A stretch of DNA of 64,000 bases from an uncultured Hormoscilla sp. (GCA_963921275.4 OZ001293.3:1248001-1312000), one strand, 5' to 3'. Counted from the stretch's first letter, positions 1 through 6,196 are shown. Notes: generated from the sequence alone by a model not told the origin. A program made the numbers and translations.

Positions 1-98
1 TTGACAAACCTTTCAAAAACTTTATCTTCATCCATTTGCTCCAATCCATGCTGACTAACAAATGTAGATAAAAAACTCTTTAATATTTCATCTTTCAT
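1..98 (-). CDS. N-terminus of probable AIPR-family (abortive infection phage resistance) protein; runs off window
   Basis: Manual translation MKDEILKSFLSTFVSQHGLEQMDEDKVFERFVN resembles AIPR N-termini; only 32 codons visible. Confidence 0.5.
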   Translation of the reverse strand, partial: MKDEILKSFLSTFVSQHGLEQMDEDKVFERFV

Positions 99-649
99 AA
101 CAATATCTTCTTATCCTCTGATGGCATCTCTTCTGATTTATAACTGGTAATTCAACGTCAAATTTGCTATATAAGCTCCACATTTTCGGATCTTATCAGT
201 CACTTTTGCCCGATCGCACCCTTATTTACAAAACTTATACGTTCATATTTGCCATATAACTCCAGGACTAAGGGGTGTTATGCAGCGTATTTGAATGTTA
301 AGCATGATACATATAGGGTGCTTATCCGTCAGAACTGCTGGATAACCCCCTTATTTGGGTAGTTATCACTACTGCGATCGCCGAATCAAATCCGACTGAC
401 CACGACTTTTCCTACTGTACAGGGTGCATCTCAATTTTGCCAAGAGTAATTCTACCTAATTCCGAAAATTTTGACCGAGAAAATTTCCTTTTGCTGTCAA
501 GCAACTGATCGCCGAATCAAATCCGACTGGCTACAAACCACACTACAACTATACATGGGTGCATCTCTATTGTCAATGAGTCATTCTACTTAAACACAAG
601 AGTATTATTCAAAGCTGAGTATCCCGGGAAGCCAGGACGGCGATTGCAC

Positions 650-1020
650 CTGGATAGCTTGTGCATAAACAGTATGCCGCTGAGGTGGGATAAATCCCTC
701 TGGCTTTTTTGCCAATCTACATAAACACCCTCAATGTCATGTTATACAGAATTTTTCCATCTAGCATCCTGATTCGGGAGCTTATACAGATTTCATCACC
801 TAGTCTAACACGCTCCTGTGCCTGGGTAACAGAAATTATGTTAAATTTTATTAATTTGCCTGAAAGCCTCTCCCAGAAATAGATTCAGCTATTAGACATT
901 TTTTAACATCGGCTGGGCCTCTTTGTGCCTACCTACCTATCTTTTACCGATCGCCCCTCCCCCTTTCTGTTCTAATATATCGATATCCCGTGGTGGCGCA
1001 AGGGATGCAACCCGTACAGA
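650..1020. repeat. Array repeat copy R1
   Basis: Contains core CTTATACAGATTTCATCACCTAG..TAACACGCTC.TGTGCC, GAAAGCCTCTCCC and tail CTCTTTGTGCCTACCT..TATC...ACCGATCGCCCC shared with other copies. Confidence 0.85.
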
Positions 1021-1107
1021 TATGTACGGGAACCACCGGTCTGCACGAATAATATGCTGGGATCGTGGGGGCGATCGCCCTTAAATTTTTACAGAGTTAA
1101 TTCGGCA

Positions 1108-1197
1108 TCATAACAACGGCTAAATTGAGAGGCGGATATTATTCGGGAGCATCTCCACCAATATCTCGCGCCCGTCCGCTCCAACCTCTTGTTATAC
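1108..1197 (-). other. attC-like imperfect hairpin
   Basis: Minus strand GTATAAC...TTGGAGCGGA...TCCGCCTCTCAA..GCCGTTGTTATGA, ~90 bp, at 3' end of a TA pair. Confidence 0.45.
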
Positions 1198-1381
1198 CGG
1201 GCTTTCGAGATAAATTCACAACTTCCTTGCCGCTTGCCGCTTGCTGCTTTTGTAAATCAGCAAATATGGCTTTCAAATCGTGATTGAATGAACGAGAGTA
1301 CTCTTCACGGATTCTGTGAATTTCTTCGACAATCTCATCCCGATACATAATCAACCTCCAAGCATTTCGTATGGGGTACAA
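1139..1381 (-). CDS. Small putative antitoxin partner of the PIN protein (likely start MYRDEIVEE)
   Basis: DEIVEEIHRIREEY..FNHDLKAIFADL pattern typical of partners of this PIN subfamily; adjacent to PIN gene. Confidence 0.65.
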   Translation of the reverse strand: MYPIRNAWRLIMYRDEIVEEIHRIREEYSRSFNHDLKAIFADLQKQQAASGKEVVNLSRKPGITRGWSGRARDIGGDAPE

Positions 1382-1824
1382 AGAATAGGCAACTCATATC
1401 CAAAATCAAGACTAATTTCTGCTAATTTTCTCTGAATTTGAGCATTTGCAATATGCTTGCAGTTCCAGGTCAGCAGGTAATCCATGCCATGAACAGTTGC
1501 GGCTGCGATATGAATAGCATCAACATCAGCTTTGGCAGGCAGATTACTGCGTCCCAGCAACTGCTCTGCTAGATCGATCGCAGATTGGTTCAAATCGAGT
1601 AACGCCAGATCGCGAATGATTGCGAGTCGTTGAGATGCTATTTGAGCATCTCCTTGTGACGTTTCTTTGACGACGGCTTGCGAAGAGTAAAGTTGGAAGT
1701 AACCACGGCGCGTATCCCACCACTCCCTCGTAATCTCTATATTGGCAGCCACGACAATATCTCTGCTGGATCGAGCAGTAAGATAGCCTAAGATACTCGT
1801 TTCAATGTAGACAGTTTCACGCAT
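1351..1824 (-). CDS. PIN domain (VapC-like) toxin
   Basis: VYIETS...DAIHIAAA...LLTWNCKHIANA motifs. Confidence 0.85.
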   Translation of the reverse strand: MRETVYIETSILGYLTARSSRDIVVAANIEITREWWDTRRGYFQLYSSQAVVKETSQGDAQIASQRLAIIRDLALLDLNQSAIDLAEQLLGRSNLPAKADVDAIHIAAATVHGMDYLLTWNCKHIANAQIQRKLAEISLDFGYELPILCTPYEMLGG

Positions 1825-1896
1825 GCAGGAAATGGGCAGTAACTTTTTCTATTTTAATCCACACCCCCGCTCGCTGCTCGTCCGTTTCAGAGGCTA

Positions 1897-1921
1897 TGCC
1901 TAGTATAACACGCGAGCGTGC
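1897..1921. repeat. Array repeat core fragment R2
   Basis: TGCCTAGTATAACACGC is identical to the core at ~5994-6010. Confidence 0.7.
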
Positions 1922-3972: not shown

Positions 3973-4232
3973 TTTCCCCTCACTTTGCGAATATTCTGGA
4001 CATCTTGCTCTAGATCTGCTAGGGTGTAGTTTAGATAAGCGCCTTCTTTCTTGAGAAACCCATCAACTTCATAGCGGCCCAAGCCAAGTATCCGCCCCAC
4101 CTCAGCATGAGTAATTGCCTCATCTCGATAGGCTTCGGCAGCGGTAATTTCCAACACCCGCTGTTTCAGATTACCCCATTTCTCTTCCATATAATTGGCG
4201 ATTTTGTCAGGTATTTCAATCGCGATTTTCAT
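3969..4232 (-). CDS. UPF0175-family antitoxin
   Basis: EAYR...IT...VGRILGLGRYEVDGFLK.....LNYT..DLEQD; RBS GGAGG upstream. Confidence 0.85.
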   Translation of the reverse strand: MKIAIEIPDKIANYMEEKWGNLKQRVLEITAAEAYRDEAITHAEVGRILGLGRYEVDGFLKKEGAYLNYTLADLEQDVQNIRKVRGK

Positions 4233-4297
4233 GGCATAACCTCCTAAACGCTCTGCTTGAGTATAGCAAATCTTGACCAGATTTTTCCTCGTCAGTT

Positions 4298-4416
4298 ACC
4301 TACCTACCTATCTTGTACCGATCGCCCCGACCCCTTGGGTGTTCTCATATATCGATATCCAGTCTGTATCGGTGTGGTGGCGCCAGGGATGGCAACCGGT
4401 ACAGAAGCGATCGCCC
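4298..4416. repeat. Array repeat copy R5 (tail portion)
   Basis: CCTACCTACCTATCTTGTACCGATCGCCCCGACCCC...ATATATCGATATCCAGTCTGT..CGGTGTGGTGG matches R1 and R6 tails. Confidence 0.85.
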
Positions 4417-4461
4417 TGAAGTCACAAGAAACCTGAGAAGGTATTCAGCATGTTGGCATCT

Positions 4462-5364
4462 TTACATTTTCATTGACTTTTTGTCTTCAATATACAGATC
4501 GAAATCGGACCATAACCTTTCATTACGCTTTTTCACCTTCTCTATGAGTTCGCCTTTTGGGCTGTATTTTTTCCCTGGATAACAAGCGAAACCAATAAAT
4601 CGTTTTCCTTTATTGCCTAAGCCATTAACACCCCATTCCGCGAGCATCTGCTCGTGACTCATATCCAGTTGACTGAGATGCTCAATAAGTCGATCGATAT
4701 CATATCGGTAAGTTGTAAACTGAACCTCAAATTGGATTTCTTCTGAATTCTCATACCTCCATTGCAGAATGTCTATGTTCCCTTCTATAGATTTCTTCCA
4801 TTGGTAACCGTCAAGAACACTTGGATCCGGCAACCAGTCCGCTACCAGTGAGTTTTTGGCATCAATCCAATCCGTGGGTCTCGAAGCATACAAAAAAGCT
4901 GTATGGTCAATGACAATCAATCCGTCTTCATTTAAATGCTCTTTGGCATTTTTCAAAGCTGCAAATCTATCTTTATCCGTACTTAAATGTTTTAATACGG
5001 ACAATGCAAACACAATTAAATCATATTTTTGATTGAGTTTAAATGAACACATATCTGTATTCACAAATTCAACAATTGCGTTCTCTACCTTATGTTCCGC
5101 ATAATTTTTTCTTCCTTGAGATATCATTTCATCACTTAAATCAATTCCAGTTATCTCCTTTGCTTCTTTCATAAATATCCAGAACAATCGACCCATTCCG
5201 CAACCCAGCTCTAATACAGATTTTGGCTTCAATATTTCAACCAAATCCTCATAGAGAGAAAAATCCATTTTGAATTCATTCATAATCTCATCATAGAAAT
5301 CCCTCGATTTGTTATACTCCGATTTGCTTAATTTCATTTTCTTCTCTGATTTGCCTAATTTCAT
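4462..5364 (-). CDS. Class I SAM-dependent methyltransferase
   Basis: SVLELGCGMGR, ITGIDLS, YDLIVF motifs; visibly AT-rich. Confidence 0.9.
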   Translation of the reverse strand: MKLGKSEKKMKLSKSEYNKSRDFYDEIMNEFKMDFSLYEDLVEILKPKSVLELGCGMGRLFWIFMKEAKEITGIDLSDEMISQGRKNYAEHKVENAIVEFVNTDMCSFKLNQKYDLIVFALSVLKHLSTDKDRFAALKNAKEHLNEDGLIVIDHTAFLYASRPTDWIDAKNSLVADWLPDPSVLDGYQWKKSIEGNIDILQWRYENSEEIQFEVQFTTYRYDIDRLIEHLSQLDMSHEQMLAEWGVNGLGNKGKRFIGFACYPGKKYSPKGELIEKVKKRNERLWSDFDLYIEDKKSMKM

Positions 5365-5474
5365 TTGTTGTCAATAACGACCTTGATGCTAGCGGTGCCG
5401 TGCTGGGACGATCGAACCCGTGCTTTATACCCCACATCCGCCTCCACTGAATGGTTCGGCACAGCAAATAGCTG

Positions 5475-6114
5475 CCCAAGGGCCACCAAGCGTCACAAGC
5501 CGAAAATACTGCCCTGGCCTCTTTGCCTCAAATGCCGCACCAGCCTATTGCCGGTGGAGATTTGTTGCATGAACAGTATGCCGCCGAGGTGGTCCAAATC
5601 GCTCTGGACATATTTCCGGCTCCTAGCATAACACGCTCGCGTGCCAAGGTAGCCTATAAAGCAAGTTAATTTTTGTTAACTTGCCTGAAAGCCTCTCCCA
5701 TAAAGAGATTCAGCTCTTTGAAATTTCGCACGGCTGTGCCTCTTTGTGCCTACCTGCTTATCTTGTACCGATCGCCCCGACCCCTTTCTATTCTCATATA
5801 TCGATATCCAGTCTGTCTCGGTGTGGTGGATATCGCTCTGCCCGCCAGTCGTTCTCCTCATGGCTACCCAAGAGCCACCAAGCGTCAAAAGCCGAAATTG
5901 CCGTATTGGTGGAGTTGCCTCAAATGCCGCACCTGCCTATTGCCGGTGGATATCTTGTGCATGAACCCGATCTGGATCTTATACAGATTTTATTGCCTAG
6001 TATAACACGCTCGTGTGCCAATGTAGCCTATAAGGCAAGTTAACTTTTGTTAAGTTTCCCTGAAAGCCTCTCCCTCCAAAGAGATTCAGCTATTTTACAT
6101 TGCTTAACATCTGA
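5475..6114. repeat. Array repeat copies R6 and R7 in tandem (period ~392 bp)
   Basis: CCCAAG.GCCACCAAGCGTCA.AAGCCGAAA at 5475 and 5867, each followed by CCTAG.ATAACACGCTCG.GTGCCAA.GTAGCCTATAA and GAAAGCCTCTCCC. Confidence 0.9.
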
Positions 6115-6196
6115 GGAACCTGGTCAGGGATCTCGTCCTCCCTACCCTGGGAGAAGTGGTCAAAACCAGTCGATCGTTCTATGGGCCCTCTCAGTC

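Follow-up and report, generated by a model that had tools for sequence, protein, structure and literature searches.

Recombining copies of a non-coding repeat among the toxin-antitoxin and defence modules of a gatB-linked island in Hormoscilla-type cyanobacteria

Islands of defence and toxin-antitoxin (TA) genes are known to be hypervariable, and the reshuffling of their modules without integrases or transposases has rarely been documented at the nucleotide level. Among the systems to which such reshuffling can be compared, the attC sites of integrons are 57-141 bp long; pdif sites, on which XerC/XerD act, are 28 bp long and occur as inverted pairs around modules; tycheposons of Prochlorococcus and cis-mobilisable elements (CIMEs) next to integrative and conjugative elements are islands that integrases mobilise and that accumulate in tandem at gene 3' ends; and the minimal mobile elements of Neisseria and Helicobacter are alternative cassettes between conserved flanks, for whose exchange homologous recombination suffices, with no dedicated machinery. 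Insertion with long target duplication, as for restriction-modification (R-M) genes, is described in several genera, including the cyanobacterium Microcystis, in the passages of Furuta et al. 2010 (PMC2853133) that we draw on. Here we describe a repeat-punctuated array at one end of a 64,000-nucleotide stretch of DNA from an uncultured Hormoscilla sp. (GCA_963921275.4, OZ001293.3:1248001-1312000), which as a whole is referred to below as the window. The array belongs to a hypervariable TA/defence island of a Hormoscilla-type cyanobacterium, which is linked to the gatB 3' end; between its modules lie copies of a non-coding repeat specific to Hormoscilla, module order and content vary between genomes, and the repeat copies recombine with one another.

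Repeat copies and module order at the gatB locus

Copies were called by repeat finding over positions 1-9000, by blastn of 5400-6180 against the whole window, and by nhmmer with a hidden Markov model (HMM) of the unit. A single non-coding repeat family, present as full and partial copies that all lie in direct orientation, spans 548-6124 (R1 to R7, Table 1), with E-values of the window copies (1e-13 to 1e-56) far beyond chance. No copy was detected by nhmmer (--max, E<=0.05) outside 548-6124 in the 64 kb, and the sole blastn match outside 1-6180 was 21 nt at 27282-27302 (E 0.003). A preliminary description of the window had listed seven such copies, and its coordinates agree with ours within ~10 nt, save that R1 reaches further left than it had stated. 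Its tandem, cargo-free pair with a period of ~392 bp is R6 and R7, whose measured start-to-start spacing is 392; its observation that every called gene of the array lies on the minus strand holds, as does, bar the 21-nt match, its failure to see the repeat elsewhere in the window. The two subtypes it had proposed (R1 with R4, R3 with R7) were recovered in the B segment, where R1 and R4 are 87% identical and R3 and R7 90%, versus 78-84% for the remaining pairs; by repeat finding, R3 and R7 share 92% identity across 145 nt. R2 matches R7 at 28 of 34 positions, with a 17-nt exact run.

In related genomes the canonical unit is ~475 bp long, with a period of 454-487 bp rather than the 392 bp of the preliminary description, and is ordered C'-B'-linker-A' on the gene strand. 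The best-conserved and least variable part of it is a core of ~150 nt formed by B' and the linker. R6 represents a variant without the linker (~95 nt), and units of this type, ~90-91% identical to R6, also adjoin the methyltransferase gene in two of the related loci introduced below (L006 and L002).

To our scan for the exact core CCTAGNNTAACACGCTCNNGTGCC, which is present in five of the six window copies that bear the B core (R2 is the exception), we submitted one genome per species, 185,579 species in all. Matches were confined to metagenome-assembled genomes (MAGs) of Hormoscilla, at six loci on five contigs: the gatB locus on contig 6 of GM7CHS1pb (L001 and L006, which overlap), an ectopic locus on contig 2 of the same genome (L005), the gatB loci of GUM202 (L003) and of a sediment bin (L002), and a 1.7-kb contig of SP12CHS1 (L004), on which about three units come after a fragment of a PIN (DUF3368) gene. 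Because gatB of the MAG loci is 94-96% identical to that of the window at the nucleotide level, the window comes from a close relative of these MAGs. The copies cluster, as the preliminary description had asked to be checked: in the near-complete GM7CHS1pb the exact core occurs at two loci only, with three matches at gatB and two at the ectopic site. The ectopic segment, ~1.3 kb between an asnB-like gene and carB, consists of an f1 segment (Table 1), two units and the 3' half of a DUF3368 gene, ends within this PIN gene, and over 967 bp shares 91% identity with its gatB-locus counterpart. R4 is 97-98% identical to copies at this locus and in GUM202, R2 has an orthologue in the sediment bin (nhmmer E 1.6e-4), and R5 is kept inside the methyltransferase block of both L006 and L002. 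The two ends of the SP12CHS1 contig (1-76 and 1626-1701) are 76-nt inverted repeats, 98.7% identical, and may represent insertion sequence (IS) termini at each end or have arisen in assembly. In the literature searched we found no description of the repeat or of the array and no paper that joins Hormoscilla with toxin-antitoxin systems; in a comparative-genomics paper on Hormoscilla (PMC6520454), the passages on repeats, toxins, transposases, pseudogenes and restriction do not mention the locus.

Read from gatB outward, the window holds a group II intron, a 21-nt tandem repeat, R7, R6, the methyltransferase gene, R5, UPF0175 with a truncated DUF3368 gene, R4, frameshifted XisH with XisI, R3, a small open reading frame (ORF), vapB with a truncated vapC, R2, a PIN-like pair, the t1 segment, R1 and f1. 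In the sediment bin, gatB is followed by vapB with a truncated vapC, R2, the PIN-like pair, t1, one chimeric unit, the methyltransferase gene, R5 and UPF0175, at which point the contig ends. The order in GM7CHS1pb (L006) is XisI#2, XisI#1, a unit, the methyltransferase gene, R5, UPF0175-DUF3368, ~1.8 units, and a dcm-Z1 cluster in which dcm is split by an IS66 element; in GUM202 it is DUF433-DUF5615, XisH#2-XisI#2, ~1.9 units and dcm-Z1. Module content and order therefore differ in all four gatB-linked loci compared, and the methyltransferase block, the XisI module and the vapB/PIN block are found in three different relative orders, so that the cargo between copies does vary among relatives, as had been suspected. 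The split in GM7CHS1pb is due to an IS66-family transposase gene at 7754-8935 of L006, beside the array; the dcm methylase gene is intact in GUM202.

The related loci also show the borders of the island. In GUM202, a direct repeat of ~300 bp (3475-3791 and 12349-12898 of L003, ~9 kb apart; 87% identical over 178 nt and 82% over 121 nt, ~85% overall) corresponds to the terminal 175 bp of gatB with the sequence beyond it, and the same gatB-end repeat, with a copy at 1729-1985, recurs ~12 kb apart in L006. Between the gatB-end copies lie an N6/N4 DNA methylase gene, the dcm-Z1 cluster, the repeat array and TA modules, and there is no integrase in the island of either L003 or L006. Since these direct repeats surround it, the array belongs to an island that has a duplicated gatB end at its borders, of which the far one, in the window's own genome, lies off the left edge of the 64 kb.

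Chimeric units, junctions and the proposed route of reshuffling

The nearest neighbour of each of 15 units changes along the length of the unit. Over its first 50 alignment columns, the single unit of the sediment bin matches R1 at 25 of 25 positions and shares an 11-nt gap with it, and over columns 150-265 it matches R6 at 107 of 111 positions versus 84 of 109 for R1, which places a crossover in C'. A unit of GUM202 is R1-type (55/55), then R4-type for ~90 nt (92/94 vs 82/94), then R1-type again (55/61), a succession that looks like a gene-conversion tract over B'. A permutation test of the pairwise homoplasy index (PHI) type gave p=0.0005 for seven units with 30 informative sites and p=0.0045 for ten units with 42 sites.

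The points at which units are interrupted are likewise scattered. In HMM/unit coordinates taken from the alignments, unit homology stops at nine positions (~77, 208, 222, 253, 285, 290, 350, 400 and 437), and entry points recur only within a longer unit variant shared by R1, R5 and the L002 and L006 copies, plus one near-coincidence. Microhomology is present at the vapC/R2 junction (GCT.C), at a truncated unit of L003 (TAGCTA) and at the deletion of XisH#2 in L006 of GM7CHS1pb (AAATTT).

We consider it moderately likely that RecA-type homologous recombination or conversion between direct copies, together with microhomology deletion, yields the duplications, deletions and permutations of modules without integron machinery. 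Repeat copies would act as portable homology. Direct copies in one genome, and probably those of different strains, would undergo unequal crossing-over and gene conversion, by which modules would be duplicated, lost or moved; the path would be a tandem duplication with a later deletion, or a circle that is cut out and integrates at a different copy. Units and genes would also be trimmed by deletion at microhomologies, and gene decay would continue alongside. The module order of the sediment bin (vapB/PIN block ahead of the methyltransferase block), together with its R1/R6 chimeric unit, would be the product expected if a copy of R1 type had crossed over with one of R6 type. The outcome would be like that of integron cassette shuffling, but would be reached without a dedicated recombinase or a defined crossover site.

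Several points weigh against this route. The nearest-neighbour table derives from one MAFFT alignment with partly non-homologous rows, and in the B segment alone the PHI-type test is non-significant (22 sites, p=0.29). The B core, CCTAG..TAACACGCTC..GTGCC, shows striking conservation and holds a short palindrome; it survives by itself as the 34-nt R2, and the copy at 10473 of L003 is truncated at the same 5' edge to within ~3 nt, a shared edge that a specific site could explain. Recombination alone does not account for the first interleaving of modules with units. The comparison covers six related loci with 10-kb flanks, with fragmentary assemblies for three of the MAGs; of the window's own genome, only the 64 kb were searched; and the array runs off the left edge of the window, where, or beyond the 10-kb flanks, a recombinase could be encoded.

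A rival reading is a true site-specific cassette platform of integron or CIME type, in which a recombinase encoded elsewhere would act at the partly palindromic B core, possibly assisted by XisH/XisI, and partial units would reflect later decay. The clustering of copies and the varying cargo at one locus are in keeping with such a platform, as are the single orientation of all cassettes, the B core as the most conserved stretch of the unit, its stand-alone 34-nt copy with the matching edge in L003, and the presence of XisH/XisI or XisI next to units in all three loci visible end to end. We nevertheless judge it improbable. No tyrosine or serine recombinase or transposase family was found by Pfam in the 77 window ORFs scanned (12 + 65), in agreement with the preliminary description; the search for a nearby tyrosine recombinase that it had proposed gave none in the 76 ORFs of L002, L003, L005 and L006, whose sole mobility gene is the IS66 transposase. 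The crossovers that could be mapped are spread over C', the 5' edge of B' and B' itself instead of sharing one point, units are left at nine positions, and junctions carry microhomology. By our own estimate, about eight entry junctions would place two edges within 3 nt of each other by chance roughly one time in three. A narrower form of the idea, that the ~150-nt B'-linker core with its 34-nt partly palindromic element is the site of an undescribed cyanobacterial cassette system with its recombinase elsewhere and possible help from XisH/XisI, the mosaics and truncations being overlaid decay, seems to us a little less probable still.

Pairs of attC core sites, R''(RYYYAAC)...R'(GTTRRRY) at 55-150 nt spacing, number 0 on both strands of 1-6200, where mononucleotide shuffles give 0.6-0.7, and the unit forms no stable hairpin; on these grounds, a core-pair pattern and folding rather than the IntegronFinder covariance model, we rejected it as an attC site. 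The cassettes are co-oriented, but the crossover position is not fixed, with fragments of 34-494 nt and boundaries at many positions in the unit. As regards pdif, all copies are on one strand with no inverted pairs, and no 11-6-11 dif-like motif was seen by eye, no formal pattern search having been made; the only palindromes seen by eye have arms too closely spaced for a dif-type site. Of the marks of an integrase-type island at a gene 3' end, the direct repeat is present in L003 and in L006, with no integrase in either island; the window stops short of the far border. Of the preliminary description's proposal, then, the dynamic, cassette-like locus with clustered copies and varying cargo is upheld, and the integron- or pdif-like platform with defined acquisition points is not, given the missing recombinase, attC pairs and hairpin, the direct orientation of the copies, the scattered junctions, the mosaic units, and some module-sized indels in which the unit is not involved at both ends, such as DUF5615-DUF433 in L003 (GUM202) versus L006 (GM7CHS1pb).

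Another explanation is nested insertion with long target duplication, as for R-M genes, in which each module would have duplicated part of a non-coding target and left partial direct copies on both sides. This mode of insertion is known, including in Microcystis, from the passages of PMC2853133 cited above, and the L003 and L006 islands, bounded by ~300-bp direct repeats of the gatB end, contain R-M genes and no integrase. Within the array, unit coordinates overlap on both sides of XisHI, of the vapB module and of the PIN-like pair, as duplication predicts, and R5 and R6, whose C' segments flank the methyltransferase gene, are each other's nearest relatives (92%). The copies flanking XisHI, however, are not sisters (R3-R4 84%, R3-R7 90%, and R4 97-98% identical to its counterparts in other genomes), which argues against a recent target duplication there. 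Cargo-free tandem units are present in every genome, the flanks of UPF0175-DUF3368 show a deficit of 39 nt in unit coordinates instead of a duplication, and no genome with an empty site is among the loci compared; we therefore regard this explanation as unlikely.

Nature of the unit and features of the window

The unit does not resemble a gene. None of nine stop-to-stop ORFs of a canonical unit matched Pfam at E<=5, variable sites are spread evenly over the codon phases (133/143/146, p=0.72) and so show no codon periodicity, and copies differ by frame-shifting indels; the Pfam and codon-phase results led us to reject a decayed gene or IS. Rfam, with the gathering threshold for the whole window and an E-value threshold for 1-7600, gave sub-threshold matches only within the units (CRISPR-DR30, 20.4 bits vs 50; U7, 17.8 vs 34; RT-7, 14.9 vs 116.8), none near threshold, and a known RNA family was rejected. 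Folding of the full unit and of three 150-nt cores on both strands, with RNA parameters only, gave z-scores of -1.61 and -0.72 for the full unit and of -1.18 to +0.86 for the cores; there is no stable structure, and a structured RNA or single-stranded DNA element was set aside for want of a fold signal (-1.61 to +0.86). The unit was unmatched by blastn in plasmid and phage collections. The preliminary description had allowed that it might be the decayed end of a known IS or gene, and it is recognisable as neither. Kinship with the adjacent group II intron or with the end of gatB was rejected for lack of blastn similarity. The B'-linker core may have a function as double-stranded DNA, such as protein binding or a weak promoter, or may merely have been homogenised by gene conversion.

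A mobile origin for the unit, as a non-autonomous element (a miniature inverted-repeat transposable element or a palindrome-associated IS200/IS605 derivative) or an IS-end remnant, might be read from the ectopic ~1.3-kb copy between the asnB-like gene and carB and from the 76-nt inverted repeats that end the SP12CHS1 contig. We think this very unlikely: repeat finding shows no inverted repeats bounding the unit, its ORFs have no transposase similarity, exact-core copies are at two loci only in the near-complete GM7CHS1pb, the ectopic segment ends inside a PIN gene and leaves no clean element, and the plasmid and phage collections hold no match.

The unit might also be a promoter, leader, operator or other regulatory element that each module carries or needs, with shuffling as a by-product. 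Modules do start just downstream of B' or the linker (XisH ~20 nt past a linker fragment, the small ORF past the linker of R3), the B'-linker core is least variable, and a TTCATA-17-CATAAT match lies in B' of R4 and of the L005 copy. In f1, each sub-repeat has a strong sigma-70-like promoter match that points leftward (TTGACA-17-TATAGT, 11 of 12 positions), with the conserved GCCAGTCGGATTTGATTCGGCGATC after it; the promoter-like sites are at 576->548 (11/12 positions), 443->414 and 612->583. f1 is 84% identical to 9559-9849 of L005, which also has promoter-like sites and sits upstream of a 62-aa ORF and a radical-SAM/asnB-like cluster, so that strong leftward promoter-like sites precede unrelated genes at the two loci. 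Against this, neither the L006 units nor copies of the R3/R6/R7 subtype have the B' match, promoter-like sites number 18 versus 13.6±3.6 in shuffles (1 versus 2.1 in another scan), UPF0175 has its own extended -10 element, and cargo-free tandem units would have nothing to regulate; a regulatory role as the reason for the array appears quite improbable. A promoter in B' was rejected as such, with matches in two scanned copies, no conservation, and site counts not above shuffles.

Table 1. Positions of the repeat copies, modules and neighbouring features in the window (strand: -, minus;., none assigned)
Feature	Position	Strand	Description	Evidence
Gene start	3-98	-	First 32 codons; runs off left edge; 'AIPR-like' in the preliminary description	
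f1	359-650	-	Terminal non-coding segment after R1; two ~131-bp sub-repeats	Repeat finding
R1	548/643-1041	-	Near-complete unit, C'-B'-linker-A' on minus strand	nhmmer E 9e-144, HMM positions 21-503; blastn
t1	1029-1106	.	78-bp non-coding segment with HIP1-type hairpin, between PIN-like pair and R1	
PIN-like pair	1139-1824	-	157-aa PIN-like protein (1351-1824) and 80-aa partner (1139-1381)	Weak Pfam PIN, E 0.0035
vapB/vapC module	1817-2273	-	AF2212-like (formerly DUF104, VapB-type; 1989-2273) and truncated vapC/PIN	Weak Pfam AF2212-like, E 0.0029
R2	1897-1930	-	Isolated 34-nt B core fragment	Repeat finding, blastn
78-aa ORF	2368-2604	-	No family	No Pfam or NCBIfam match
R3	2625-2857	-	Part of C', B', linker start	nhmmer E 3e-57, HMM positions 80-304
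XisH and XisI	2861-3649	-	XisH (3205-3649, frameshifted) and XisI (2861-3217)	Pfam XisI E 2.4e-43; XisH in two frames, E 1.7e-34 and 4.5e-9
R4	3626-3726	-	B' only; ends directly upstream of XisH	nhmmer E 1.8e-32
UPF0175 and DUF3368	3751-4232	-	UPF0175 antitoxin-like (3969-4232) and truncated DUF3368/PIN toxin-like (3751-3972)	Pfam UPF0175 E 2.7e-16
R5	4297-4399	-	C' fragment between methyltransferase gene and UPF0175	nhmmer E 2.5e-24
Methyltransferase	4462-5364	-	Class-I S-adenosylmethionine-dependent methyltransferase; GC 0.32-0.41	Pfam Methyltransf_25/12/11
R6	5465-5870	-	Full 392-bp unit variant without linker	Repeat finding, blastn, nhmmer
R7	5866-6124	-	Partial unit (B' + A'), in tandem with R6, no cargo between	Repeat finding, nhmmer
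21-nt tandem repeat	6197-6365	.	Unit GCCAGCAATAGCTTATTGTAA, 8 copies	Tandem Repeats Finder score 322, 97% matches
Group II intron	6574-7442	-	869 nt, ORF-less; 5' GTGCG at 7442	Rfam Intron_gpII domains V-VI, 44.4 bits (threshold 40)
gatB	7490-8974	-	Conserved anchor	Pfam GatB_N E 1.6e-123

Of the module labels in the preliminary description, XisH/XisI, UPF0175 and the low-GC methyltransferase stand, PIN and AF2212-like matches are weak, and 'aspartyl protease' has no support from Pfam or NCBIfam; nor was 'AIPR-like' confirmed for the ORF at 3-98, whose 32 codons in the window gave no NCBIfam match. In relatives the array adjoins the dcm-Z1 defence cluster at the position of this gene. NCBIfam and PADLOC, applied to the small proteins, returned only methyltransferase-domain matches, and for the methyltransferase itself the NCBIfam matches are sub-threshold, so that it is not recognisable as a DNA methyltransferase. 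The PIN-like pair is orthologous to the L002 block adjoining gatB, and t1 has counterparts at 87-89% identity in three related loci, downstream of the Z1 gene in L006 and L003 and also in L002. DUF3368 is detected only in the longer orthologues of L006 and L005, the window copy being without ~250 bp found in L001/L006. The window vapC is cut exactly at the 5' edge of R2; an 89-aa relative (P0003) goes on as PIN past '...IAAS', diverging exactly at that edge, and R2 was accordingly rejected as native vapC coding sequence.

Besides the frameshifted XisH and the truncated DUF3368/PIN and vapC genes, several genes elsewhere in the window appear split into adjacent ORFs (Mg-chelatase/ComM-like, 15107-16639; kinase-formylglycine-generating enzyme-sulfatase, 35809-37416; protein kinase, 49685-50749), which together suggests continuing gene decay. 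A second small TA cluster at 45964-47824 (DUF433-DUF5615, a DUF433 fragment and a HEPN protein) has no repeat copy, and TA clustering in this genome thus needs no repeat.

On the gatB side, the group II intron, overlooked in the preliminary description, lies 48 nt past the stop codon of gatB; it is precisely absent at the orthologous site of L001/L006, and the corresponding stretch is unaligned in L002 and L003. The 21-nt repeat lies between the array and the gatB-downstream region and is expanded in the window only; in L003 the flanks of its site are joined directly to a truncated unit. A GC-rich hairpin that matches Rfam CRISPR-DR28 (36.6 bits) occurs at 6539-6571, 30591-30622, 30695-30726, 30796-30827 and 59025-59055, three of these copies being ~100 bp apart near 30.6-30.8 kb, and inverted copies lie near both island borders of L003; it looks like a repetitive extragenic palindromic (REP-type) element, not a CRISPR array. 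Beyond gatB, a low-GC segment of ~865 bp at 9672-10538, with a 148-aa ORF without family, is present in the window and absent from L001 and L003, which carry a different extra segment of ~850-1000 bp near this site; this is a variable spot beyond gatB.

Comparison with known systems

The chimeric copies point to a lineage-specific non-coding repeat as a recombination substrate, and so to a simple means by which an uncultured sponge symbiont turns over cassettes in the manner of an integron; were the conserved core a dedicated site, the array would be a new class of cyanobacterial cassette platform. It also counsels caution, as punctuation by a repeat is by itself insufficient for inferring an integron-like system.

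Chromosomal integrons and clusters of attC sites lacking integron-integrases (CALIN), such as the Vibrio superintegron with its VCR/attC repeats, are alike in having co-oriented, small, TA-rich cassettes, one repeat, and an order that varies between related genomes. Here, however, there is no intI found, no R''/R' pair and no hairpin, junctions fall at many positions, some tandem units are empty, and the repeats range from 34 to ~475 bp. The pdif modules of Acinetobacter plasmids share small TA or resistance modules bounded by site copies and shuffled between replicons, but the copies described here are all direct and long. With tycheposons and CIMEs the array has in common a variable island at the 3' end of a housekeeping gene, a duplicated gene end and modular cargo; it differs in having no integrase and an internal repeat without blastn similarity to the gatB end.

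The R-M contexts with long direct repeats, as far as the cited passages of PMC2853133 describe them, resemble the array in their addictive modules, long direct repeats and absence of transposase or integrase, and the ~300-bp direct copies of the gatB end that bound the whole island in relatives add to the likeness; here, by contrast, one repeat family recurs often, also as cargo-free tandem units, and flanking copies are mostly not sisters. Compared with minimal mobile elements, the homology is supplied here by an internal, lineage-specific tandem repeat and not only by flanking core genes. Closest in spirit are variable regions shaped by homologous recombination, whether mediated by repeats or by flanks, and the long direct repeats around addictive R-M genes.

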